From: Nitrospirota bacterium
Lineage (GTDB): Bacteria > Nitrospirota > Nitrospiria > JACRHA01
DNA: 44,322 nt
Direction of reading: 5' to 3'
Assembly: GCA_016234185.1 (NCBI GenBank)
Contig: JACRHA010000032.1
Coordinates: 1-44,322, forward strand
The notes beneath the pieces are model-generated. The model saw nothing but the letters and a program-made list of their open reading frames with translations, did no database searches and was not told the origin of the DNA. The position numbers and the translations under genes were made by a program. Shown one piece after another: positions 1,882 to 44,079 of the stretch; the first letter of the stretch is position 1; each line of letters starts with the position of its first letter.

Positions 1882-3154
1882 CACTACTGTCCGGTTAAAA
1901 TAGAGCCCCTTGCATGGGTGCATTTCGCACTGCAAGGAGACGCCCTGGTTTAAGTGTTAGAATATCTATAAGAACCTTTCTTTCAAAAAGCATTTCCGAA
2001 TCACACGGCTCAATTGAAGCAAGGAATAACCGTATTTGGTCTGGTATTTGATATAGGTCAATAGCAGGTAATAGCACATAGCTATCCATATCTGGGTGAG
2101 CACGGCATTCTTGCTGGTACCGAGGAAAGATTTGATCTTTAGATTCTGCTTGATCCACTTGAAAAACAATTCTATCTGCCATCGTGATTTATATATCTGG
2201 GCAATCGTCCTGGTGGCAAGCTTGAAATTATTGGTCAGGAACGTCAATATCTTTTGCCGCTCTTCGTCATAGTACCGGATAAGCCTTAAATCTTTAGGAT
2301 ATAGGGTCTTTGTCTTAATGCCGGAAAGGGAAATACGCTCATCGCTTAAGACCCCTTTGCCTGTAACCTGATGCTGTCCGGTTACAGCATAATCTATATT
2401 GGACTTGGCCCTCGTGACAAACCATACCCCTTGTTCTGCAAGTGAATAAAGCCACTTGTAATCTATGTATGCCTTATCCACCGAAACGATGCTGTCCGGT
2501 GATAGGGGATGAGAGGTCTCCTTCGCTGCCCTGACATCATTCCTCTTGCCATCGGTCACGGTCAGAAAGCAAGGCATGGCCCCCGAATGGTCATAAAGAC
2601 AGTGCATCTTGATTGCCCCTTTGGTTTTTCTGAACTTTGCCCAGGGGAATACTGAAAGACACAGGTCAATCGTCGTGGAATCTATCGTATACAAGGGATT
2701 TTTGAAACGAAACTTATGCTTTGGCGTCAGATCCCTACATCGTGCAAGAAGGTGATAAAATGTATCCTCGAATATCCGATAATCCCTCTTTGTATTGGCA
2801 TCGGATAAAGTGCTTCTGTGCACACCAGTAAGCCCGAGGTGATACCACCTGGTACTATGTGATGAAAGTCCCGTTTCTATATCCCGCAGGCTATCCTTCA
2901 GCGTGATCTGGGAATAGAGAATGGTAATATATTGTTGCCAAGTGCCAAATGTCTTCATGTATCGGTCTCCCTGGTACCGCTCTACTGCTCTCTCAAATTG
3001 ATATCTCGGACAAAGTTTCAATATCTCCGAGAAGATGGTGTATACTATCTGCATGGTCTGTTCCTCCTTGTCAGATGAAGGTTTGGTCGCCTATATTATC
3101 TAACAAGTATAAAGAACAGGCCTTGCTTTTATAAGCTTTTACCGGACACTAGTG
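1882..3154 (-). mobile_element. IS4-family insertion sequence (about 1.27 kb)
   Basis: Terminal inverted repeats CACTACTGTCCGGT (1882-1895) and ACCGGACACTAGTG (3141-3154), 13/14 matching, enclose the single transposase ORF. No clear target-site duplication seen. Confidence 0.75.
1966..3054 (-). CDS. IS4-family DDE transposase
   Basis: 362-aa ORF with N-terminal DUF4372-like region and DDE_Tnp_1-like core (TIDSTTIDLC, VSVDKAYIDY, YKSRWQIELFFKWIKQ). Flanked by inverted repeats. Confidence 0.9.
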   Translation of the reverse strand: MQIVYTIFSEILKLCPRYQFERAVERYQGDRYMKTFGTWQQYITILYSQITLKDSLRDIETGLSSHSTRWYHLGLTGVHRSTLSDANTKRDYRIFEDTFYHLLARCRDLTPKHKFRFKNPLYTIDSTTIDLCLSVFPWAKFRKTKGAIKMHCLYDHSGAMPCFLTVTDGKRNDVRAAKETSHPLSPDSIVSVDKAYIDYKWLYSLAEQGVWFVTRAKSNIDYAVTGQHQVTGKGVLSDERISLSGIKTKTLYPKDLRLIRYYDEERQKILTFLTNNFKLATRTIAQIYKSRWQIELFFKWIKQNLKIKSFLGTSKNAVLTQIWIAMCYYLLLTYIKYQTKYGYSLLQLSRVIRKCFLKERFL

Positions 3155-11253: not shown

Positions 11254-11670
11254 ATGGAGAGGACACTGGCAATAGTCAAGCCTGATGCTGTTGAGAAGGG
11301 ATTTATCGGGGAGATCATAAAGAGGTATGAGACAAACGGACTTGGCATTGTCGGTATGAAGATGTTGCGTCTGTCGAGGGAAGAGGCTGAGGGATTCTAC
11401 TATGTTCACAGAGAAAGACCCTTCTTTAAAAGTCTTGTGGATTTTATGTCATCAGGCCCGGTTGTTGTACTGGCACTGGAGGGCGATGGGGCGATCAAGA
11501 AGAACAGGGATCTGATGGGTGCGACTGATCCGGCAAAGGCAGAACCCGGCACCATAAGGAAACTCTTTGCTGCGAATATAGAGAGGAATGCGGTGCACGG
11601 CTCTGACTCTAAGGATTCGGCGGCCTTTGAGATAGCCTATTTCTTTAACAGGCTGGAAATGATGAGATGA
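11254..11670 (+). CDS. ndk: nucleoside-diphosphate kinase
   Basis: [12 protein letters not shown]...NAVHGSDS (active-site His motif). 138 aa. Confidence 0.95.
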
Positions 11671-13004
11671 CCAATGCTTCCGGATACGACGTAATTGTTT
11701 GCGGAAGCGGATACAACCATCTTATTTTATCTGCACTGCTGGCAAGCAGGGGCGTTAATCTTCTTCTCCTTTCAACATCAAATGGAAAGAGGTTCGGGAG
11801 GGGCGGGTATCAGTTCCCGGATGAGTACCCTTTATTTATAGATTTTGGCCCCGATGGGATACTGGGCGAAGTCTTTGCTGATATTGACATCCCCTTCTCA
11901 TACCTAAAGGGAGAGGAGCAGCTCTTCAGGGATCTATCACCGGCCTTCCAGGTAGTTTTCCCGGATTATCGGATCGATATCTTCAAGGAAGAGGAAGATC
12001 TCCTGGATGAGCTATGCAGGGAACTCAGAGAAGATGGCGGGCAGATCATCTCCCTTTTCAATGAGGTCAACCGGATTAATGCATTGTTCGATGACAATGG
12101 TGAGCCATCTCTCTATAGAAAGATTAAGGCATTGGCTAAAAAGATCAGCTTCTCAGGAAAGAGCGGGAGAAATATCCTGAATCGTTTCAATCCATCTGAA
12201 AGACTTATTCGATTCCTGGATGTTATAAGCCTTGCCTTCTACGGGATCGGGATAGCGGAGTTAGATGCCTTAAGATTTATTGCCATCTTGCGGATGTTAA
12301 AGGGCGGGGGAAGGTCTGTAAAGGGAGGGGTTGAGATATTAACCGATCTTCTCGTCAAGAAGGTAAGATCCGAAGGCGGAGAGTTTTATGATGGAGAGAT
12401 TGATGAATTTCAAATAAAGAGAAACAGAATAGCAGGGATCAAGACCAGCAGGGGAGATATATTTGATTGTAAGGCAGTAGTGATGGAATCCAATAAGGCA
12501 AAAGAAGATAATAAGATCGCCAAGCAAAAAAGGTTCTCATCATATTTTGGGGTCGATGCAGGCTTTATCCCCTCCCCAATGGCTGATTATCTTATTCTAA
12601 CAAGGGATTACTCAAAGGCGGTGCAAGCCGATAATCTTCTAATGCTCTCATTGAGCCCTTCAGACGACTTAAGTTGGGCGCCGGCGGACAAGAGGTTGAT
12701 TACAGTGTCTACCCTTATACCCTCCTCTCAAATCTTATCAGCGTCATACTTAGATGGGTTAAATAATTTAGTGCTGGCTAATCTGATCTGGCTTATGCCC
12801 TTCTCAGGGGGACATATAGAATTTATTGGTGACGATCTCAACTTCGGGCGGGTTAAAGAGAAGACAGCGAACCCTCTTTCATCGCTCTCTGCTGATCCTA
12901 AGAACCTACATTTAATCGAAGATGGCAGTCCTGCATGGATCAGGACGAGTGAGGACATTAGGGCCTCTTACAAGATAGCAGACCAGATATTAGACAAGAT
13001 CTAA
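11667..13004 (+). CDS. NAD(P)/FAD-dependent oxidoreductase, phytoene-desaturase-like
   Basis: N-terminal [23 protein letters not shown] dinucleotide-binding fold. ATGA overlap with the ndk stop. Function not assignable. Confidence 0.6.
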
Positions 13005-21486: not shown

Positions 21487-23031
21487 ATGACCTATAACTC
21501 CCAGATCGGAAACTACGCATATCCGGCAAGCGGGACAACCAGCACCAGGCCCCATGCAGTGACAAGTGCCGGGACAAACAGCTACTCCTATGATGCCAAC
21601 GGGAATATGACCTCTAATGTAGGCAAGACCATCAGTTATGATTTTGAGAACAGGCCAACAAGCATAACTTCAGGCACAAACACCACAACATTTGTATATG
21701 ACGGGGATGGTGGGAGGGTAAAAAAGACAGCAAGCGGGACTACCACTATCTACATAGGAAAGCTCTATGAATGCGTATCAGGATCATGCAGTAAATATAT
21801 CTTTGCAAGTGGTCAGAGGATCGCCATAAAGCCTGTAGGCGGTACCTCGATCAATTACTATCACACAGATCATCTTGGCTCAAGCAGTGTCATCACGAAT
21901 TCCGCAGGGACAAAGGTGCAGAGCCTTGCCTATTTCCCCTATGGCCAGACACGGGTTAGCACCGGTTCTATAGATGTACATCACAAATATACCTCCCAGG
22001 AGCTAGATGACAGCACGGGGCTTTACTTCTATAATGCAAGATATTATGATCCAGCCTTGGGGAGGTTTATAAGTGCGGATAGTATTATACCGAATCCAAG
22101 AGATCCCCAGGCTTTAAACCGATATTCCTATGCAAGAAATAACCCGATTATTTATATTGATCCATCAGGGCATCGTTGGAAGTGGCTTGATAGACAGATG
22201 GATCGGCTCAGGGAGAACGAAACCATTCAAATCGCTGTGGGTGTTGGCCTGCAGCTCTTCGGAGGACCCATCGGCCTAGTTGCTGGTAGCTATCTATTGA
22301 CTCAGAGCGAGACAGGGCGAAATATTCTGGCTGGGGAGGTTATTGTTGCGACGGCCATTGCGACAGCGTATTGTGGAGGATGCGGAGGCGTGGCATTAGG
22401 TGCATTGGTTGGTGAGGCGGTGGGGGGTTATAGCGCTTATCGGGCAGGAGGGGATATCGCATCAGGAATTATTGTGGGTGGAGCGCTAGGGGCAATCACC
22501 GGAGGCATAGGGAATTATGCGGGCGCTTCCGTGGGTGGACAATTTGGTACAGGCTGGGTAGGTCATGTGGCAGGCGGGGCAGTAAAAGGGGCGATCCTTG
22601 GCGCAGGAAGTGGTGCCAGTGCTGGGTATGCTGGCGGGGTCGGAAGCTGGAAGATGATGCTCCGAGGGGCCTATCAAGGGGCCTTGATCGGGGCGGCTGC
22701 TGGAGGGGCGATCGGGTATGGGGAATATCGCTTTACAGGTGGTGGCCTAGAGGATCTTAGCGGGCCAGAGATTGTTGACAAGGCAAAACAAGGGGTCTTA
22801 GATGGAATAACACAAGCAGCCAAGAAGGGCGATCTGGGGGCTATTATTGGAGATGTGGCTAAATCGGTTGGAAAACAATTCTTAGAACCTGCGTTGAGCA
22901 CAATGGTACGATATCCCAACTTAATCTACGGGCTAGCTTATGTAGGGGTTGGGATTGAGCAGACTGATCGTTCAATTTCCCAGGAAATGGGTGATCGTGG
23001 GGTGAGTGGAGAACTAGGAATTGATTTCTAG
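21487..23031 (+). CDS. 5'-truncated Rhs/YD-repeat core fragment with a glycine-zipper-rich C-terminal domain
   Basis: YD repeats (YSYDANGNMTS, YDFENRPTS, FVYDGDGGRVKK). Core end YFYNARYYDPALGRFISADS...NPIIYIDPSGH. The reading frame is open and Rhs-like from 21289 (YGYDNAGNITAITD, YSYDQIGNMTY), but there is no N-terminal part or start upstream. ATG 21487 is the first ATG. Confidence 0.8.
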   Translation: MTYNSQIGNYAYPASGTTSTRPHAVTSAGTNSYSYDANGNMTSNVGKTISYDFENRPTSITSGTNTTTFVYDGDGGRVKKTASGTTTIYIGKLYECVSGSCSKYIFASGQRIAIKPVGGTSINYYHTDHLGSSSVITNSAGTKVQSLAYFPYGQTRVSTGSIDVHHKYTSQELDDSTGLYFYNARYYDPALGRFISADSIIPNPRDPQALNRYSYARNNPIIYIDPSGHRWKWLDRQMDRLRENETIQIAVGVGLQLFGGPIGLVAGSYLLTQSETGRNILAGEVIVATAIATAYCGGCGGVALGALVGEAVGGYSAYRAGGDIASGIIVGGALGAITGGIGNYAGASVGGQFGTGWVGHVAGGAVKGAILGAGSGASAGYAGGVGSWKMMLRGAYQGALIGAAAGGAIGYGEYRFTGGGLEDLSGPEIVDKAKQGVLDGITQAAKKGDLGAIIGDVAKSVGKQFLEPALSTMVRYPNLIYGLAYVGVGIEQTDRSISQEMGDRGVSGELGIDF

Positions 23032-35932: not shown

Positions 35933-38149
35933 TCAGTCCCCTTTAGCGCCAAGTTCAAGCCATCCTTTGACTTCTGACCCAGGGATCGGCCGGCTTATAA
36001 AATATCCCTGGGCCATATCGCACCCGAGAAGGGTAAGCCTCTTCATTGTCTCTTTATTTTCTACGCCCTCGGCTACGACCTTAATACGGAGACTATGGGC
36101 AAGCTCTATTATTGAATGGACTATGGCAATACTGTTTTCATCTGCCATCATATTAATGACAAATGATTTGTCTATCTTGATCTCGTCAACCGGTAATTTT
36201 TGAAGATAGCCAAGCGAAGAGTAACCGGTGCCAAAGTCATCAATAGAAAAATGTATGCCCATAGCGGCCATCTGTGTCAGTATCTCCATGGATCGTTCAG
36301 GATCTCTCATTATGGTGCTTTCAGTTAATTCAAGCCTTAAATTTGCCGGCGCCATGCTGGATCTGGAGATGAGTAGTTTTATCTGTTTTAAGAGTTCCGG
36401 AACCTGGAGGTTTTGCATCGAGAGGTTTACAGCCACACAAACCTGAAGGCCTTCCTGCTTCCAGATGCGGGATTGTTTTAGCGATTCCTTTATTACCCAG
36501 AGGGTGAGATCCTTTATCAGACCTGTATGTTCGGCAAGCGCTATAAACTGATTAGGCGGGATAACCCCAAGTCTTGGGTGCTGCCAGCGGACAAGGGACT
36601 CGACACCTACGGGACTGCCGGTTTTAAGATCTATCTTTGGCTGATAGAGGAGGAACATCTGATCAGAGTCTATGGAGTGTCTGAGCTCACTGATAAGTGC
36701 AAGACGTTCCGGGCTGTACTGGTTATGCTGAGGTGAGTAGATGGTCAGACCGCTTTTTGTATTTTTTGCCCTATACATGGCCATGTCTGCATATTGCATC
36801 AGGGTATTGGCGTCATCACCATATCCGGGATAGGTTACCATGCCGATACTTGCGTTGACATTTATCGCTATCCCTTCCAAGGTAAAAGGTTCTTTTAAGC
36901 TTTTTATGAAACTGTCTGCTATTCTATTTGCGCCTTCTGCGTCTGTATCAGGCAGGACCACCGCAAACTCGTCCCCGCCGGTCCGCGCCAATGTAGCGGT
37001 CTCAGGCAGGGCAATCCGAAGGCGATCCCCTGTCTGCTTTAGTATGATGTCACCGCTATGGTGGCCAAGGGTATTGTTGATCTCTTTGAAACGGTCCAGG
37101 TCCATAACAAGCAGGACAAGGGGTCTATTTCCGGACTTTGCCTCAAATATGGCCTGCTGCAGGCGGTCATGGAGCAGGGTCCGGTTAGGAAGACCGGTCA
37201 GGACATCGTAATAGGCCAGTTGCTGGATCATATCTTCTGAGTGCTTGCGTTCAGTGATGTCGCGAAAGATCTCTAGTTTGGAGATACTCCCATCATAATT
37301 ACGTAATGGGGTGTCCAGCAGGTCATATGTCTTATTGTTTTTAGCGGAATACCATTCCCATCTGACAGTCTTTCCTGCAAAGACCTTCTGGTTCTTGCAC
37401 CATGGACAAACCTCATCCCTGTCATGAAAATATTCATAGCATTTCCGCCCTTCCACAGGACCAAACTCCCTTTCAATGACAGGGTTGATATATTCTATAT
37501 CATAAGCCTGATTTACAATATATACACCATCCTCCATAGATTCCAGGATATTGATGAGCTTGTCCCGCTCCACCCTCAGCGCCTCTTCGGCCTTCACGGT
37601 CTGAATGACATGGGTGGTTATGCCGGCAAGGCCCTCCAGCATGGCATCCTCTTCAGTGGTGATAGATTGTTTTGAGAAGAGCGCCAGAACGCCCATAGGT
37701 CCGCCATTGGTATCTTGAAGCTTATACCCTGCAAATGAGACGAGGCCAAGCCCCTTTGCCCATTTGTGATCCATAATCTGCTGGTCATTTACTACATCAT
37801 TAGTGAGGAACTTGGTTATCTTTCCGTTGGCTACCCGCCCCAGCTTGTACAGGCCAAATGGCATCCGGCTATGAGGGCCCTCTATATGTGTATAACGGCT
37901 GGAGCTGGCGACAAGGTGAAGGCAACGTTCTCGCAAACGGCATATCTTATCCTCTTCCTTGGCCTTGGCGTGAATACAGCCGGAATCACAGCGGTCCCCA
38001 GGCATGCTAAGCCATATGCGACAAAAATCGGCATTAAAGATCTCTACAACGCCTTCCGTAATCTTTTTTAGCTTTTCCTCAAGACATCCAGGGGCAAGCA
38101 AGGTCTCTTGAAGTTGGTTGAGTCTTTGCAGGCGATCAGCATTAGGCAT
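35933..38149 (-). CDS. GAF-PAS-GGDEF-EAL signalling protein (putative diguanylate cyclase/phosphodiesterase)
   Basis: RTGGDEFAVV (GGDEF), ELTES and DDFGTGYSSL (EAL domain), a PAS region with ITERK linker, and an N-terminal GAF-like region with Cys clusters. Confidence 0.9.
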   Translation of the reverse strand: MPNADRLQRLNQLQETLLAPGCLEEKLKKITEGVVEIFNADFCRIWLSMPGDRCDSGCIHAKAKEEDKICRLRERCLHLVASSSRYTHIEGPHSRMPFGLYKLGRVANGKITKFLTNDVVNDQQIMDHKWAKGLGLVSFAGYKLQDTNGGPMGVLALFSKQSITTEEDAMLEGLAGITTHVIQTVKAEEALRVERDKLINILESMEDGVYIVNQAYDIEYINPVIEREFGPVEGRKCYEYFHDRDEVCPWCKNQKVFAGKTVRWEWYSAKNNKTYDLLDTPLRNYDGSISKLEIFRDITERKHSEDMIQQLAYYDVLTGLPNRTLLHDRLQQAIFEAKSGNRPLVLLVMDLDRFKEINNTLGHHSGDIILKQTGDRLRIALPETATLARTGGDEFAVVLPDTDAEGANRIADSFIKSLKEPFTLEGIAINVNASIGMVTYPGYGDDANTLMQYADMAMYRAKNTKSGLTIYSPQHNQYSPERLALISELRHSIDSDQMFLLYQPKIDLKTGSPVGVESLVRWQHPRLGVIPPNQFIALAEHTGLIKDLTLWVIKESLKQSRIWKQEGLQVCVAVNLSMQNLQVPELLKQIKLLISRSSMAPANLRLELTESTIMRDPERSMEILTQMAAMGIHFSIDDFGTGYSSLGYLQKLPVDEIKIDKSFVINMMADENSIAIVHSIIELAHSLRIKVVAEGVENKETMKRLTLLGCDMAQGYFISRPIPGSEVKGWLELGAKGD

Positions 38150-38249
38150 AATGCTTCATTTTCCTTAATAATCCTAGGGATTATAGACACTCCTATATTA
38201 TTTATTAAAACATAAAATCGATCAATTTACAATTCGATTTACCACCTCC

Positions 38250-38279
38250 TTGACTAGACTAGAGGCCGGAAGGTAGAAT
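38250..38279 (+). promoter_or_regulatory. candidate sigma70-type promoter (TTGACT-18 nt-TAGAAT) for the 1039-aa gene
   Basis: TTGACT 38250-38255, 18-nt spacer, TAGAAT 38274-38279. 58 nt upstream of ATG 38338. Confidence 0.4.
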
Positions 38280-38337
38280 AATACATTCAATGTGTTACGC
38301 CCTTCCAGATGGTGCCTTTTATAATTGGCAATAAAAA

Positions 38338-41300
38338 ATGGATAACATGGACAGCAAAGAGATATATAAATCTTTTTTAAGGGAGCACTACCCCTTTAAT
38401 TTAATCCCTGATCAGATTGTTGATGATCTGATCTCCTGCATCAAGGAAGAGCAATATGGCACAGGTCAGACTATTTACCAAAAGGGGGAAGAGGGGGGTA
38501 TCTTTAATATTGTCCATACGGGTGAGGTGTATGAATTGATTACGGACAGGAACGGGGAGGAGATCATCGTTTCGCTTCTCCGCGAGGGGAGCTGCTTTGG
38601 CGCAATATCCGTATTAACAGGCGAGCCACATTCAGTAACAACAAGGGCAAAGGGGGATGTGGAGCTATATGTTATAGAAAGAGGGGATTTGGAGGCTTTA
38701 CTCTCCCGCCATCCCTCCCTCAATAAATATCTGACGCGGATCCTCACTGAGAAGATAAGGAACCTATTCCTCTTCTTTGAGACAGAAGGGATAAGGGTAT
38801 TTGAAAAGGCAGGGAGTATAGATGAGAAGGAGAGGGAGATCTCATTTCTCAACAGGATTACCAATCTGATCGGTTCTAAAGAGGATTATGAAAAGCTCCT
38901 TGATACCATAGTCAGCGAGGTCCGGGGATACACGGGCGCAGATGTATGCTCTGTCTATCTACTGGATCCGATAACAAGCGAACTCATTTTGGAGGCGGCA
39001 GATGGTGTAGGGGAGGGGATGGTAAGAAAGATAAAGATGGATCTCTCCCAGGGGATCACCGGATGGGTTATCAGAAATAGCGAGCCTGTTGCAGTATATG
39101 ATGTCCATAAGGATCCAAGGGTGCATATCATCTCTGACATCCAGGAGGACAGGTTAAAGTCGCTCTTATCCCTTCCACTTGTTATAAGGGGGAAATGCAT
39201 AGGCGCACTTAACCTGGCTAATGTGAACTACAGGGACTATTCATACAATGATATTCAGAGCATGGGTATTATTGCCAATCATATAGCCATGGCTATCTCA
39301 AACTTCAGATTGCGGAAGAGGATATTTGCAGCCACCGGAGTTTCAAGTTCAAAACTGGGCGGGCTTGATCATTTTGTAGGTGAAACAAGTTATGTGAGGG
39401 GTATAAACAGATTTATAGATCTGAATGCAAAGGATGACGGGCATGCCCTCTTAAAAGGAGAAGAGGGGACGGGAAAGAATCTCCTCGCATCGCTGATCCA
39501 TAGAAGGAGCAGGAGGGCAAAGGGGCCATTTATAACAGTCGACTGTGAATCATTCCGAAAGGAATCGTGGGGCGAAGAGCTCTTTGGTGATGATAGGGAT
39601 CCATCGTCGGGTGAGATTGCGTTCGGTTTTCTTGAGTTGGCCCATGGCGGGACTATCCTCTTAAGAAATATAGAGTCGCTTAATCAGGCCAATCAGATAG
39701 CCATCTACAAGTTTCTGAACGACGGGCGGTTTGTCCGGGTGCACGGGCATGATACGATCTACTCAAACACCAGGGTTATTGCCACTGTTAATGGAGACAC
39801 AAAGGCTGATGACAGGGTAGACCTGAACAAGGATCTTTATGATCTTCTATCGGCCAATTCATTCTCTATGGTACCTCTCAGGAAGATGCGGAAGGATATC
39901 CCTGTCCTTTCCACACACCTTTTGAAAAATATCGATGACGAACTCCATAAAGGGATCATGGAGATATCAGGGAACGCCATGGAGAGGCTTTTGAGTTATG
40001 ACTGGCCTGGGAATGTCCTTGAGCTTGAGAACGTCTTAAGAAGGGCGGTAATCCTTGCCAATGAGGGCACGATACTCTCCAATCAGATATTCTTCGGCAT
40101 CCCCAGGGTGGAGAAGAGGTGGGAATTTAATCTGTTTTCTATGGAACCAATAAAAAGGTTTTTCTATACAACTCGCCTTCAAAAGGGGGTCCAGATCACA
40201 GCCATAATATTGATGTTTTATATAATCTACACCCTTATCTTGCACAATGGGACTGGCTATAGTCTCTCAAATATCATCCTATGGTCTTTCGGTTGGTTCG
40301 GCCTTTTTGTGTCTGCCTTCTCTATAGGGAGGATATGGTGTACTGTGTGTCCATTTTCAAGTTTCGGGGATCTTCTGAAAAGGATAAAAAAGAAGAAGAT
40401 TCCGATACCAAACGATGTGGGCAAGAAGAGCGAGAGATACCTTGTCGGATTGATACTCCTTGTGCTTTTTGCGGAAGGCATTACTGTGATGCCTGCGGTT
40501 CCACTTTTTACCGGACTGCTTATACTATTTATACTGATCGGGGCCATAGTATCTTCAATCCTTTATGATAAGAGGGTCTGGTGCCGGTACATATGCCCGC
40601 TTGGCGGATTATTAGGGATCTATTCCCTTGCGTCCTTTGTAACGATAAAGGCGAATAGAAAGCTCTGTTTGAGTCAGTGCACAACACACGACTGTTATCT
40701 TGGGAGGGATGAGATGGAGGGGTGTCCGATGCTACTTCATCCCTATGGGGTTGAGAACAGCCAGAACTGCACCCTTTGTGGCAGCTGCGTCAGGACATGC
40801 AGGCACAACTCGCTTCGCCTTTCCCTCCACCTTCCGACTACGGGGGTAGAGGACATAGATATATTCAGCCTCCCCTTTTCATTCCTTGCCTCTGCCCTGG
40901 CAGGGATTTTATTGGTAGAGAACGGCTCCATGCTTTCGAGGACATCACCCCTGTTTACATACATAAATAACATAATAAGGATTAACCCAAATAGCCTCTA
41001 CGCATTACTATTCATCGGGGCAATGACCCTCCCTTTTCTGTTGATTATCTCCTTAGACCTATTGATCAACAGATGGTCTAAAGAGGGGATAAAGGAGTAC
41101 CTTACCAATCTGCCTTACTCTTTCATGCCTCTTGCTTTGCTTGGACATATAGCCCTCTACGGGAAGGAACTTGTCTTATATTTGCCAAAGATCGGTAATA
41201 TTGCCATGGAAAGGATAGGACTCAGGATATTATTCTCGCCTATAGGCGTAAAAGGTCAGACATGGGTGGAGATACTACAGGTACTCCTTGTTATCTTTGG

Positions 41301-41457
41301 TGCGGCAGAGAGTATATACCTTCTTCTCAGGATCTATAAGAAATCAGAACATAAGAACCTGCCAAAGAGGAGGACATTGCCGATCTATATCGGGATGATA
41401 TTATTCTTTGCGGTAATCTATGTAATATCATTCCTTGGTATGCCTTCTGGTAATTGA
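38338..41457 (+). CDS. multidomain chimera: cNMP-binding + GAF + degenerate sigma54-interaction AAA+ domain + NapH/NosR-like polytopic 4Fe-4S membrane domain
   Basis: aa 20-140: cNMP-binding pattern (GEEGGIFNIV..G.V.....DRNGEE..V..L..G.CFG..S.LTGEP). aa 165-325: GAF. aa 346-585: GEEGTGKN Walker A, RVIATVNGD, WPGNVLELEN. aa 610-1039: multiple hydrophobic helices, GRIWCTVCPF and KRVWCRYICPLG (CxxCP), and CTLCGSCVRTC. Confidence 0.85.
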   Translation: MDNMDSKEIYKSFLREHYPFNLIPDQIVDDLISCIKEEQYGTGQTIYQKGEEGGIFNIVHTGEVYELITDRNGEEIIVSLLREGSCFGAISVLTGEPHSVTTRAKGDVELYVIERGDLEALLSRHPSLNKYLTRILTEKIRNLFLFFETEGIRVFEKAGSIDEKEREISFLNRITNLIGSKEDYEKLLDTIVSEVRGYTGADVCSVYLLDPITSELILEAADGVGEGMVRKIKMDLSQGITGWVIRNSEPVAVYDVHKDPRVHIISDIQEDRLKSLLSLPLVIRGKCIGALNLANVNYRDYSYNDIQSMGIIANHIAMAISNFRLRKRIFAATGVSSSKLGGLDHFVGETSYVRGINRFIDLNAKDDGHALLKGEEGTGKNLLASLIHRRSRRAKGPFITVDCESFRKESWGEELFGDDRDPSSGEIAFGFLELAHGGTILLRNIESLNQANQIAIYKFLNDGRFVRVHGHDTIYSNTRVIATVNGDTKADDRVDLNKDLYDLLSANSFSMVPLRKMRKDIPVLSTHLLKNIDDELHKGIMEISGNAMERLLSYDWPGNVLELENVLRRAVILANEGTILSNQIFFGIPRVEKRWEFNLFSMEPIKRFFYTTRLQKGVQITAIILMFYIIYTLILHNGTGYSLSNIILWSFGWFGLFVSAFSIGRIWCTVCPFSSFGDLLKRIKKKKIPIPNDVGKKSERYLVGLILLVLFAEGITVMPAVPLFTGLLILFILIGAIVSSILYDKRVWCRYICPLGGLLGIYSLASFVTIKANRKLCLSQCTTHDCYLGRDEMEGCPMLLHPYGVENSQNCTLCGSCVRTCRHNSLRLSLHLPTTGVEDIDIFSLPFSFLASALAGILLVENGSMLSRTSPLFTYINNIIRINPNSLYALLFIGAMTLPFLLIISLDLLINRWSKEGIKEYLTNLPYSFMPLALLGHIALYGKELVLYLPKIGNIAMERIGLRILFSPIGVKGQTWVEILQVLLVIFGAAESIYLLLRIYKKSEHKNLPKRRTLPIYIGMILFFAVIYVISFLGMPSGN

Positions 41458-41570: not shown

Positions 41571-41879
41571 ATGAAGGCAGAAAGGCAAAATAAAACAGAT
41601 CCGAAGGAGGTCTTCAATCCTGTCCTCTTTTGGGATGCGGATAAAATAGACATAGAAAGGAATGCAAGCTATATTATCGCCCGGATACTGGACTATGGCG
41701 ATGAAAAGGACATTAAGTTATTAAGGGAAATATATCCTGATAAAAAACTTATTGAAGTAGTAAGAAAAAGTCGTGTATTAATGCCCCAGACCGGCAAATT
41801 CTGGGCTATTTATTTCAATATACCACCAATGGAGATTGCATGTTTGAGAGCGTACTACCAGAAGAAGTCATTGGAGTAG
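41571..41879 (+). CDS. small protein, putative partner (antitoxin-like) of the AbiEii-like gene
   Basis: 102-aa ORF overlapping the start of the downstream nucleotidyltransferase-like gene by 40 nt. No family name recalled with confidence. Confidence 0.55.
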   Translation: MKAERQNKTDPKEVFNPVLFWDADKIDIERNASYIIARILDYGDEKDIKLLREIYPDKKLIEVVRKSRVLMPQTGKFWAIYFNIPPMEIACLRAYYQKKSLE

Positions 41880-42465
41880 TGAATAACCTTGCATCAAAGC
41901 TAGGCGATTTTTATCTGGCCGACGGGACAGGACTGGCGCTTCAATTAGGCCATAGAAGATCAGTCGACTTAGATTTTTCTCGCAAGAGATCTTTAACGCA
42001 GATATCATTTTAGAGCGCTTGTCTCCTGAGAAGATCTTTCTTGTAAGGGAAGGGACGATCCACTGCGAACTTAAAAAGGTGAAGCTTTCATTCCTCTATT
42101 ACAAACAGCCTCTTATCTATCAACCGATTCCCTGGCGGGGCCTGAAGATCGCTGACTGGAAGGATATAGTCGCTGAAAAGTTTAAGGCTATATCACAGAG
42201 GGGGACAAAAAAGGATTTTTATGACCTTTATGCGGTGTTGCAGATGAGATTATCCATTACGGAGGCATGCGATATCTTTAAGTCAAGGTTCTCTTCATCG
42301 GGCATTAACATGTACCATGTTTTAAAAAGTATTACATTTTTCGAGGATGCCGAGAGCGAACCATCACCAATGTTAATTGTAAAAGGTGAGGATTGGGAGT
42401 GGGTAAGGGTGAAAAAATTCTTCGAGCAAAACATAAAGATATTCCAGGAACAACTTATGCCGTAA
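41840..42465 (+). pseudogene. AbiEii/AbiGii-like nucleotidyltransferase toxin gene, frameshifted at a T5 run
   Basis: The N-terminal frame reads ...FYLADGTGLALQLGHRRSVDLDF and then stops at 42011. Adding one T to the T5 run at 41974-41978 restores DLDFFSQEIFNADIILERLSPEKIF..., joining ORF 42019-42465 for 208 aa in total. Confidence 0.7.
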
Positions 42466-42574
42466 TGTCTATGTCCCGACATATTCGAAGAACCGTGACG
42501 GGGCATGAAATGATTGAAAACTATAGCAGACGTAATAATTATTGTTACATATTAGCGGAATGTGCAATTTAATT

Positions 42575-42819
42575 TAAAATCCCCCTTGATCAGTTGCAGG
42601 GGAGCGACCGTCCCCCTCCACCGGCATAGCCGGATGGAGCCTCCCCCTCCCTACGCTCGACTCCGCTCGCTGTGCTTCTAAGGGGGAAACCCTTTTTCCC
42701 CTCTTTGGAAAAGAGCTTGCTATATTACAGAGAGGAAGGGAAAGCTTAAAAAAGGCTATACTCCTTTTTGCAGACAATAGCCAGTTGGTAAAAACCAACT
42801 TAAAGAAAGGAGTATAGCC
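42575..42819 (+). ncRNA. candidate IS110 bridge-RNA / structured 5' leader
   Basis: Perfect 13-bp stem GGCTATACTCCTT (42754-42766) / AAGGAGTATAGCC (42807-42819) enclosing the hairpin AGTTGGT-AAAA-ACCAACT. Further stems CCGGC-ATA-GCCGG and GGGGA...TCCCC lie upstream. Confidence 0.3.
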
Positions 42820-44079
42820 ATGGGAAATAGTATCACAAAGAAACTCAAAAGGATAAGTGAGAAAACGCTTCTTGTGACAGTGGATATAGGAAAGGTGAAA
42901 CATACGGGATATTACAGGTTTCCTGATGGTACCGATGGGAAGACTTTTGAGTTCTGTAGCAGTAGGAAGGGCTTTGAAGAGATGTGGCAATGGGTGTTCG
43001 ACGCTAAGAGATCCCGTAACCTTACGGATGTAGTAGTGGGATTTGAATCCACAGGTCCTTATGCTGAACCACTGTTGCACTTTTTGAGGAGGCACAATGT
43101 GCGTCTTGTGCAGGTAAATCCTTTGCATACGAAGAGACTGAAAGAACTTGAGGGGAATTCTCCGAACAAGACAGATCAGAAAGATCCCAAGGTTATTGCC
43201 GATATCGTAGAGCTTGGACATGCGCTCACTGTAATAATTCCTGAAGGCACAGTGGCGGAACTGCGCAGGTTGACACAGGCCAGGGAAAGAAGCATACAGA
43301 GAATGAGTATGCTTATGAGTCAGCTTCAGGATTTGGTTTTTCTTATTTTTCCAGAGTTCATGGCGGTTATGAAAGATATAACCACAAAAAGCACTCAGTA
43401 TATTTTGAAAAACTATCCTCGGCCTCAGGATTCTGTGGACGCGGGAGTAGAGCTTCTGACTGAGATACTTAAGAAAGTAAGCAGGGGCAGACTGGGTAAA
43501 GAAAGAGCTGAAGCATTGTATCAGGCGGCTGGGGAATCTATAGGGCTTATAGAAGGCCGAGAGAGTATTGTTCTTGAGATAAAGGAGAGCATTTCTACCA
43601 TAGAGAGCATTGAGAGCTTCGCCAAAGAGCTTAAAAGACATATGAGCTTGCACCTGAAGGATGTTCCTTACAGTCGATGCATCCTTTCGATGAAGGGGAT
43701 CGGTGAGATTACGGCAGCCGGTCTTATTGGTGAGATGGGTGATTTTAAGAAATATGGAACGATAGCCGAGGTGATCAAACATGCCGGACTGGACCTTTTT
43801 GAGATTAGCTCCGGCAAGCACAAAGGAAAGAGGCGAATTTCCAAAAGAGGACGCCCACTTTTGAGGAAACTTCTGTTTTTTGCCTCTATAAATGTTGTCA
43901 GAAAAGGCGGGATACTGCATACGCAATACTGGCGTCATATTGAAAAGGGGATGCCAAAGATAAAGGCATTGATTGCCATATCCCGTAAGCTGCTCAGTAT
44001 AATTTTTGCGCTTGTTCGCGATCATAGCGTGTACATAGCTCAGTATTCAAAAACACAACAGTTAAAGGAGGCTGCATAG
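42820..44079 (+). CDS. IS110-family transposase/recombinase (DEDD RuvC-like plus Tnp_20 domain)
   Basis: LLVTVDIGKVKH, VVGFESTGPYAEPL, VQVNPLHTKR....NKTDQKDPKVIADI, and C-terminal LSMKGIGEITAAGLIGEMGD...RRISKRGRPLLRK are the family hallmarks. Confidence 0.92.
   Translation: MGNSITKKLKRISEKTLLVTVDIGKVKHTGYYRFPDGTDGKTFEFCSSRKGFEEMWQWVFDAKRSRNLTDVVVGFESTGPYAEPLLHFLRRHNVRLVQVNPLHTKRLKELEGNSPNKTDQKDPKVIADIVELGHALTVIIPEGTVAELRRLTQARERSIQRMSMLMSQLQDLVFLIFPEFMAVMKDITTKSTQYILKNYPRPQDSVDAGVELLTEILKKVSRGRLGKERAEALYQAAGESIGLIEGRESIVLEIKESISTIESIESFAKELKRHMSLHLKDVPYSRCILSMKGIGEITAAGLIGEMGDFKKYGTIAEVIKHAGLDLFEISSGKHKGKRRISKRGRPLLRKLLFFASINVVRKGGILHTQYWRHIEKGMPKIKALIAISRKLLSIIFALVRDHSVYIAQYSKTQQLKEAA

Follow-up and report, generated by a model that had tools for sequence, protein, structure and literature searches.

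Is a protein that joins the AAA+ domain of bacterial enhancer-binding proteins (bEBPs) with a membrane iron–sulfur domain a transcription activator, a redox protein, or an artefact? This question is raised by a gene for a 1039-amino-acid (aa) protein on contig JACRHA010000032.1 of a Nitrospirota bacterium (assembly GCA_016234185.1), which was analyzed over its 44,322 nucleotides (hereafter, the window). Judged from its motifs, the protein is almost certainly not a sigma-54 transcription activator and its database label almost certainly wrong, because the sigma-54 contact loop, the catalytic residues, and the DNA-binding domain are missing throughout the family. In the reading that we prefer, and to which we give about an even chance, the gene product is an inner-membrane redox protein in which sensors gate a NapH/NosR-type module through a non-hydrolysing AAA+ switch.

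Domain order and selection on the fusion protein

The gene is an uninterrupted open reading frame (ORF) with no internal stop, and a second in-frame ATG would shorten the product to 1036 aa, the form held in the protein database (P0001, 100% identity). In a Pfam scan, cNMP_binding, GAF, Sigma54_activat, AAA_lid_14, two stretches of Fer4_5, and a weak Fer4 follow each other in this order, and every domain except the small Fer4 match reaches its gathering score. The same scan of the 1039-aa protein found neither HTH_8 or any other DNA-binding domain nor FMN_bind. An earlier reading made from the letters alone (hereafter, the sequence-only reading) had described a 1039-aa ORF fusing sensors, AAA+, and a membrane iron–sulfur part, with a GAF domain at about aa 165–325 and no C-terminal helix-turn-helix (HTH). 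The translation and the Pfam scan bear this out (GAF: aa 182–320, E = 1e-17; no HTH), and the AAA+ (Sigma54_activat: E = 1e-25) and Fer4_5 (E = 7e-11) assignments hold. Based on hydropathy and the AlphaFold model, about 30 aa or less separate the AAA+ lid from the first transmembrane (TM) helix. Compared to the orthologues in loci L007 and L009, the ratio of nonsynonymous to synonymous substitution rates (dN/dS) is 0.14 for the whole gene, 0.06–0.07 for AAA+, 0.03–0.06 for GAF, about 0.06 for the iron–sulfur region, and 0.19–0.33 for the TM segments, showing that purifying selection acts on every part of the protein (dN/dS 0.03–0.33).

The AAA+ domain keeps its fold and has lost its motifs

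Pfam assigns Sigma54_activat to aa 349–505 and AAA_lid_14 to aa 515–583 (E = 5e-18), and PDB sequence matches to NifA, NtrC1, NtrC4, and others reach E-values down to 4e-37. Since the AlphaFold model (mean pLDDT 81) superposes on the AAA+ domains of NtrC1, FlrC, FleQ, and PspF with a target TM-score of about 0.9 (Foldseek), the AAA+ fold is predicted to be intact. We aligned the motifs residue by residue with NifA (PDB 9qq6) and NtrC4 (3dzd). The bEBP hallmarks listed earlier for aa 346–585, such as the Walker A motif GEEGTGKN, were recovered, as were the replacement of GAFTGA, which is lost inside ELFGDDRDPSSGE (aa 413–426) where DPSSGE stands opposite the NifA motif, and the RN pair (R443 and N444) in place of the Walker B Asp-Glu. 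The arginine-finger and sensor II arginines are lost too (Table 1).

The same losses recur across the family. When 93 fused AAA+ domains were aligned with eight genuine, GAFTGA-bearing bEBPs, none of the fused domains had an intact GAFTGA, and the Walker B Glu was mostly replaced (N: 45/93; H: 29/93; E: 5/93). Most members have K, E, or R at the Walker B Asp position and D, S, N, or H at that of the arginine finger, and 11 of the 93 retain the sensor II Arg. The Walker A Lys is K in 72 and R in 12 of them. All of these features are kept in the eight genuine bEBPs. In the Scalindua clade (P0005–P0008), an insertion of 25–30 aa falls exactly at the lost GAFTGA loop, the tip of L1 (alignment A1, columns ~448–480). 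The window domain therefore appears catalytically dead and unable to contact sigma-54; for most members nucleotide binding is plausible, whereas hydrolysis and sigma-54 contact are not. Despite this loss of motifs the domain is under strong constraint (dN/dS 0.06–0.07, vs 0.14 for the whole gene), making it a clear case of an AAA+ motor kept by selection after it lost its substrate-contact loop and catalysis, and the family a good system for asking what pseudo-ATPases do.

Compared to NifA, NtrC, and FhlA, the window protein has the same order of GAF, Sigma54_activat, and AAA_lid (the NCBIfam nifA model aligns to aa 167–586), the same predicted fold, Walker A, and the ELFG and WPGN..ELEN framework. 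It differs in lacking GAFTGA, the Walker B Asp-Glu, the arginine finger, the sensor II Arg, and the HTH, and in ending with a 450-aa membrane redox module. The closest analogy for how its AAA+ domain may work is offered by TyrR, NtrX, VpsR, and HupR, which are bEBP-like regulators independent of sigma-54; the structures of VpsR and NtrX were among the Foldseek fold matches. Like the window protein, these proteins have a bEBP-type AAA+ domain without a working GAFTGA, and they use it for oligomerisation that depends on ligand or nucleotide, not for remodelling sigma-54; however, they end in an HTH and act on DNA, whereas the window family ends in a membrane iron–sulfur module.

Some bEBPs do without a DNA-binding domain, such as FlgR of Helicobacter and CtcC of Chlamydia, which work from solution. 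That the window protein is a genuine activator of this kind, acting from the membrane, is very improbable, although it would agree with the strong Sigma54_activat and NifA-type matches and with source annotations as ‘sigma 54-interacting transcriptional regulator’. The motifs that such a protein needs (GAFTGA, Walker B Asp-Glu, arginine finger, and sensor II Arg) are absent here and lost in most members, and the L1 loop tolerates the Scalindua insertion. No NCBIfam bEBP equivalog cut-off is reached, the best being nifA (193 bits vs a cut-off of 529) and all others lower. In addition, the family is abundant in cyanobacteria, where genome surveys found sigma-54 and its activators to be absent (PMC11119718, PMC3162934). 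The statement of the sequence-only reading that this is not a transcription activator is thus supported both by the window protein and by the 93 fused domains.

A NapH/NosR-type membrane module with twelve conserved cysteines

The C-terminal part contains two stretches of Fer4_5 (best: aa 647–691) and the weak Fer4 (aa 809–825). The NapH/MauN model TIGR02163 aligns to aa 660–828 (E = 4e-14, 52.7 bits), from the first Cys motif through both cluster motifs, as expected from the NapH/NosR-like nature that had been proposed for this part; the NosR and CcoG models of NCBIfam gave marginal matches only. Two CxxCP motifs had been proposed; the first stands (C668xxC671P), whereas the second is a CX3CP motif (C749-RYI-C753-P). 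Likewise, the ferredoxin motif CTLCGSCVRTC is present but not single, being preceded by an atypical cluster motif, C777x3C781x4C786...C796P, before C811xxC814xxC817xxxC821. These eight ferredoxin-type Cys (C777, C781, C786, C796; C811, C814, C817, C821) are enough for two clusters. Hydropathy and two AlphaFold models (C-terminal model: pLDDT 83, pTM 0.87) give nine TM helices in all. Placing the AAA+ domain in the cytoplasm and applying the positive-inside rule predicts that both Cys-Pro motifs and the eight-Cys domain face the cytoplasm and the C-terminus the periplasm. In some relatives, the five-helix end (aa 842–1034) weakly resembles Yip1.

None of the 12 Cys varies among 59 fused proteins, and in 27 stand-alone relatives they are 96–100% conserved; a Glu embedded in the membrane (E713) shows 97% conservation among the fused proteins. 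Because the 12 Cys are invariant and the module aligns to NapH/MauN, we consider the redox module functional. NapH, NosR, and RdhC share a module of four helices and two motifs, NapH is viewed as a quinol-oxidising membrane subunit, and NosR and RdhC were themselves formerly mistaken for regulators (PMC5928378).

In common with NapH/MauN, the TM helices of the window protein bear a pair of Cys-x(2-3)-Cys-Pro motifs at the cytoplasmic side, with two [4Fe-4S] motifs after them, and the alignment covers model positions 74–253 of 255. However, its 52.7 bits compare with a TIGR02163 cut-off of 213, its first motif is CX2CP rather than CX3CP, its first cluster is of the atypical Cx3Cx4C...CP type, and it adds five C-terminal TM helices and a 590-aa cytoplasmic sensor/AAA+ part. 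No napG, napA, nap operon, or mau genes were found among the window ORFs scanned or beside the orthologues. The distance from NosR is greater (NF046105: 17.7 bits vs a cut-off of 1000, to the C-terminal module only), and the N-terminal periplasmic FMN-binding domain of NosR is missing.

Relatives of the module occur in settings of electron transfer or metal redox. Some stand-alone relatives share their operons with a molybdopterin oxidoreductase, a pair of ferredoxins, and another protein of the Fer4_5 kind; one (P0064; L086–L088) lies between duplicated AhpC/redoxin genes and a gene for a PCYCGC-motif protein. Others are fused to YHS, cupredoxin, Caa3_CtaG, or SoxA/TsdA cytochrome c domains, and the C-terminal fusions to periplasmic cupredoxin and cytochrome c carriers agree with the predicted periplasmic C-terminus. 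In L086–L088, the genes of the P0064 locus are followed by a guanylate-cyclase-domain protein and a Cus-like RND efflux system.

These settings bear on a special case of the preferred reading, a sensor-tuned CcoG-like reductase whose substrate at the cytoplasmic face would be Cu(II) or some other metal or metalloid. CcoG (FixG, YccM) is itself a Fer4_5 membrane protein with two cytoplasm-facing tetranuclear [4Fe-4S] clusters and is a cupric reductase (PMC7558416). Relatives of the module carry copper-related domains (YHS, cupredoxin, Caa3_CtaG), one stands beside the PCYCGC protein and the Cus-like RND efflux system, and MerR, ArsP, TehB, and thioredoxin genes lie near cyanobacterial copies. 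We nevertheless hold this case improbable: the CcoG model TIGR02745 matches at E = 0.08 (11.8 bits vs a cut-off of 316.7), compared to 4e-14 for NapH, the C-terminus consists of five TM helices without the immunoglobulin-like periplasmic domain, there are no cco genes nearby and neither ccoHIS nor copper genes in the window, and the copper-related fusions are confined to a few distant relatives.

N-terminal sensors

The first domain of the protein has the fold of Crp/FNR effector domains (Pfam cNMP_binding, E = 1e-18), here named for its match to the cyclic-nucleotide-binding (cNMP) family. The fold is as noted in the sequence-only reading, whereas the label of a cyclic-nucleotide sensor is doubtful for this protein. 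In the phosphate-binding cassette, FGAISVLTGEPHSVT, the Glu that binds ribose is changed to Ala and the Arg that binds phosphate to His, so that the Glu and Arg of the canonical FGE...R[ST]A are both missing. Among 69 aligned cNMP domains (65 of them family representatives, with E. coli CRP as the reference), Glu is present in 58 and Arg in 26, and many other family members retain the canonical FGE...PR[ST]A. In contrast, the window protein and its GAF-bearing orthologues have FGA...PHS or FGA...PYL (canonical: FGE...PRS), with Glu changed to Ala and Arg to His or Tyr. Given this altered cassette, binding of cAMP or cGMP in the usual manner has probably been lost in the window clade, whose Crp-type pocket likely takes another ligand or none.

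The second sensor, a GAF domain of the NifA/FhlA/PtsP type, is the most constrained part of the protein (dN/dS 0.03–0.06). It appears to have been gained in the clade of the window protein (Nitrospirota, Scalindua, and Nitrospinota).

The fusion is genuine, old, and widespread

The same uninterrupted ORF is present at 92–93% identity in independent metagenome-assembled genomes of uncultured Nitrospirota (L007 and L009). Full-length orthologues at 70–77% and 36–42% identity were found in other Nitrospirota, many Ca. Scalindua/Brocadiaceae, and Nitrospinota, and AAA+-membrane fusions at 24–34% identity in at least eight further phyla. When one genome per species was scanned, the fusion also turned up in Desulfobulbaceae and other Thermodesulfobacteriota, Myxococcota, Armatimonadota, Acidobacteriota, Methylomirabilota, and Cyanobacteria. 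The Nitrospirota and Scalindua clades share a conserved linker motif at about aa 585–600. The fusion is genuine, and it is old.

These observations also settle whether the gene is a misassembled chimera or a decaying pseudogene made of two fused neighbours, which we regard as the least credible of all explanations. The window is a metagenomic assembly with mobile elements near the gene (an IS110 element and a DDE transposase; Table 1). However, the same ORF occurs in L007 and L009 and the same junction in dozens more assemblies across phyla, every domain is under purifying selection, and the linker motif is conserved; a chimera is excluded by this conservation of the junction across independent assemblies, rather than by read mapping. 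As a side observation, the frame of the orthologue in Ca. Scalindua rubra (L031, 255–2792) breaks after about 470 aa, with similarity running to query residue 761, which is possibly a frameshift or a pseudogene in that assembly.

We searched for the family exhaustively with HMMER, using the membrane part alone (aa 590–1039) against clusters at 50% identity. A total of 1953 clusters match at E ≤ 1e-3 and 231 at E ≤ 1e-30, and in 110 of the best 150 cluster representatives an AAA+ domain lies directly upstream of the module. These best 150 comprise cNMP-AAA-membrane (61, three with a split AAA match), AAA-membrane (36), GAF-AAA-membrane (7), cNMP-GAF-AAA-membrane as in the window (6), cNMP-membrane (1), and the membrane module alone (39), and about 13 bear GAF. 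Four of seven ‘AAA-membrane’ proteins scanned with Pfam carry a divergent cNMP domain, and the others have FHA+GAF or no input domain. Thus, the N-terminal inputs vary (cNMP, cNMP+GAF, GAF, FHA+GAF, or none) and the AAA+-membrane unit is constant. The window protein belongs to the family by its degenerate Sigma54_activat followed directly by the 12-Cys membrane module.

A second search, which started from the Alkalinema protein, gave 271 cluster representatives at E ≤ 1e-20. Their 120 top-ranking members are at 59–99% identity, and nearly all of these that have an organism name are cyanobacterial. Carriers in culture include Tolypothrix tenuis PCC 7101, Nodosilinea nodulosa, and Spirulina subsalsa, which makes the family testable. 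Source databases name its members ‘sigma 54-interacting transcriptional regulator’, ‘RNA polymerase subunit sigma-54’, or ‘nitrogen assimilation regulatory protein’, and also ‘cyclic nucleotide-binding domain-containing protein’, ‘4Fe-4S binding protein’, or ‘polyferredoxin/CRP-like cAMP-binding protein’. Mislabelling as sigma-54 activators affects regulon reconstructions and bEBP counts in Nitrospirota, the anammox genus Scalindua, Nitrospinota, Desulfobacterota, Acidobacteriota, and most of the cyanobacterial lineages sampled. A literature search for the fusion family, or for membrane-bound, GAFTGA-less, or pseudo-ATPase bEBPs, found no paper on such an architecture. The architecture is common and present in many phyla, yet apparently uncharacterised. 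The sequence-only reading, which knew of no characterised protein of this kind, was right in this respect, but the architecture is no rarity, and the same domain order recurs in many independent assemblies, where the conserved junction contradicts a misjoin.

A proposed sensor-gated redox module and the direction of signalling

In genuine bEBPs, N-terminal sensors control assembly of the AAA+ ring. By analogy, in the reading that we prefer, the Crp-fold domain and the NifA-type GAF domain would decide whether the AAA+ domains assemble, and the AAA+ domain would bind nucleotide without hydrolysing it and serve as an oligomerisation switch. Assembly would bring the attached membrane modules into an active arrangement, in which each module, with two putative [4Fe-4S] clusters facing the cytoplasm, would most likely pass electrons to, or receive them from, the quinone pool or redox partners. 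In signalling proteins, variable N-termini on a constant unit mark that unit as the effector, which here would make the AAA+-membrane unit the likely effector and the variable domains its inputs. If sensors do gate a NapH-like module, ligands would control electron transfer in the membrane directly, for which few examples are documented, and the gating might shed light on the poorly understood NapH/NosR/RdhC module.

Several points weigh against this reading. The window gene stands alone between the GGDEF-EAL gene and mobile elements, and in the survey of 66 loci and the window no neighbour conserved throughout the family names an electron donor or acceptor. The Walker A Lys is gone in about one fifth of the members, so the family may be able to do without nucleotide binding. 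Cofactor binding, ATP binding, and oligomeric state are predictions for every member, and the same holds for which way control runs and for the electron donor and acceptor. When the C-terminal model (pTM 0.87) was compared to the PDB with Foldseek, nothing was found (best E = 0.38), and a PDB sequence search with the module returned only generic ferredoxin fragments; the mechanism of the module cannot, therefore, be read from a solved relative.

The same data also fit signalling in the reverse direction, with the membrane iron–sulfur module sensing quinone redox state, oxygen, nitric oxide, or a metal and the cytoplasmic AAA+/GAF/Crp part as output. The output would be a protein contact, for example sequestering or releasing a soluble partner at the membrane, possibly a true bEBP in mixed rings. 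Redox and gas sensing by iron–sulfur clusters is common, oligomeric protein contacts are what bEBP AAA+ domains are made for, and AAA+ is more tightly constrained here than the TM helices. Pfam recognises no enzymatic or DNA-binding output domain besides the membrane module, and cysK follows the gene in cyanobacteria, CysK being known as a binding partner in regulatory complexes. On the other hand, the N-terminal domains are classic inputs and vary while the AAA+-membrane unit is constant, and stand-alone relatives in respiratory-type operons or fused to periplasmic carriers point to catalytic electron transfer, not to sensing. Poisoning of bEBP rings is impossible in cyanobacteria, where neither sigma-54 nor its activators were found (PMC3162934). 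We therefore consider reverse signalling unlikely, though a serious rival to the sensor-gated redox protein. The earlier proposal that sensing and AAA+ are coupled to a membrane redox module is upheld as far as a sensor-coupled redox protein is concerned; its direction of signalling is a matter of interpretation.

The cysK association was seen in all six cyanobacterial loci examined (L048, L053, L056, L092, L093, and L094), with gaps between the fusion gene and cysK of −4 to 155 bp in five loci and about 1 kb in L053. These are bona fide cysK genes (TIGR01139: 417–428 bits vs a cut-off of 351), and the adjacency is a lead towards sulfur/cysteine metabolism in the cyanobacterial clade only. We tentatively extend the preferred reading, with less confidence than we have in the reading itself, to a new kind of signalling output. 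A non-hydrolysing pseudo-AAA+ ring taken over from sigma-54 activators would assemble NapH-like modules when a second messenger or metabolite (and ATP) binds, so that cytoplasmic signals would switch one branch of electron transport in the membrane at the post-translational level. In cyanobacteria, such a branch could perhaps feed reducing power to sulfur/cysteine metabolism, because cysK adjoins the copies examined. The Tolypothrix and Nodosilinea loci also have TehB, rhodanese, thioredoxin, TauE, MerR, and Rrf2 genes nearby.

Seven loci of the Acidobacteria type (L057, L059, L061, L062, L063, L070, and L072) have a thrC-like gene directly upstream on the same strand, whose product has an N-terminal zinc-ribbon-like CxxC pair, and a very large secreted repeat protein downstream of the fusion gene. 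The thrC-like gene was rejected as an instance of the cysK association, since the two co-cluster only through the shared PALP fold.

Features of the window and gene neighbourhood

Table 1 Features of the fusion gene and of mobile elements in the window
Feature	Position	Strand	Basis or remark
Whole gene	38338..41457	+	1039 aa; alternative start ATG 38347 (1036 aa)
Candidate sigma-70-type promoter TTGACT-18-TAGAAT	38250..38279	+	Consensus scan, 10/12 matches; pattern match alone
Crp-type cNMP_binding fold	38449..38712	+	aa 38–125; Pfam E = 1e-18
Phosphate-binding cassette, non-canonical	38596–38640	+	aa 87–101; cassette comparison, 69 domains
GAF domain, NifA/FhlA/PtsP type	38881..39297	+	aa 182–320; Pfam E = 1e-17; NCBIfam nifA aligned aa 167–586
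bEBP-type AAA+ and lid	39382..40086	+	aa 349–583; Pfam, PDB sequence matches, Foldseek; dN/dS 0.06–0.07
Walker A GEEGTGKN, retained	39457..39480	+	aa 374–381; alignment
L1 loop region EELFGDDRDPSSGE, site of GAFTGA	39574..39615	+	aa 413–426; alignment, degenerate family-wide
Walker B equivalent GGTILLRNIE	39646..39675	+	aa 437–446; Asp-Glu pair is R443 N444
Arginine-finger region LNKDLYDLLS, both arginines lost	39823..39852	+	aa 496–505; FRED to LNKD (aa 496–499)
Sensor II region WPGNVLELEN, Arg to Leu	40003..40032	+	aa 556–565; NVRELEN to NVLELEN
NapH/NosR-like core, four TM helices	40171..40857	+	aa 612–840; Fer4_5, NapH/MauN TIGR02163, AlphaFold, hydropathy
CX2CP motif (C668xxC671P)	40339–40353	+	aa 668–672
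CX3CP motif (C749-RYI-C753-P)	40582–40599	+	aa 749–754
Cytoplasmic eight-Cys domain, predicted two [4Fe-4S] clusters	40666–40800	+	aa 777–821
Five further TM helices	40861..41439	+	aa 842–1034; hydropathy, AlphaFold models
IS110-family transposase	42820–44079	+	Window scan
483-aa antisense ORF overlapping IS110	42574–44025	-	No Pfam match
DDE transposase with DUF4372	1966–3054	-	Window scan

The surroundings of the gene were compared among 66 loci and the window, together with selected homologues, and this survey of orthologues found neighbours specific to single clades only. In the window, 188 bp separate the gene from a divergent GAF-PAS-GGDEF-EAL gene, and the candidate promoter sits in this gap. 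Downstream lie a DUF6922/AbiEii remnant and then the IS110 element. The remnant (41571–42465) consists of a DUF6922 gene and a 148-aa AbiEii fragment that matches profile positions 136–212 of 238, and it is probably a decayed type IV toxin-antitoxin pair. Genes for GpsA, SerRS, LeuRS, LptE, HolA, and PriA give the window the look of an ordinary chromosome. Pfam gave no match at E ≤ 1e-5 for two long ORFs of the window (11667–13004, 445 aa; 21487–23031, 514 aa).

In the closest relatives, a 394-aa gene lies between the GGDEF-EAL gene and the fusion gene, and the downstream genes differ from those of the window. Comparison of the upstream regions (window: 35933–38337; L007: 3969–7818; L009: 3560–7816) suggests that the 394-aa gene was lost from the window by a local deletion. 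The upstream GAF-PAS-GGDEF-EAL protein has 738 aa in the window, compared to 864–999 aa in the closest relatives. The Scalindua orthologue has an HD-GYP-type gene downstream of it. A link to cyclic di-GMP through these two neighbours was considered and dropped, since the neighbours are not conserved and, by eye, the residues after Walker A that bind cyclic di-GMP in FleQ are absent.

In four Desulfobacterota/Myxococcota loci, an unannotated protein of about 1080 aa is encoded downstream, which by eye resembles a regulator of the SARP/BTAD type. About 10 kb upstream of the Scalindua orthologue, L001 (1–155) encodes a protein with cNMP_binding and a weak Zip metal-transporter domain, which is another fusion of a cNMP domain to a membrane protein.

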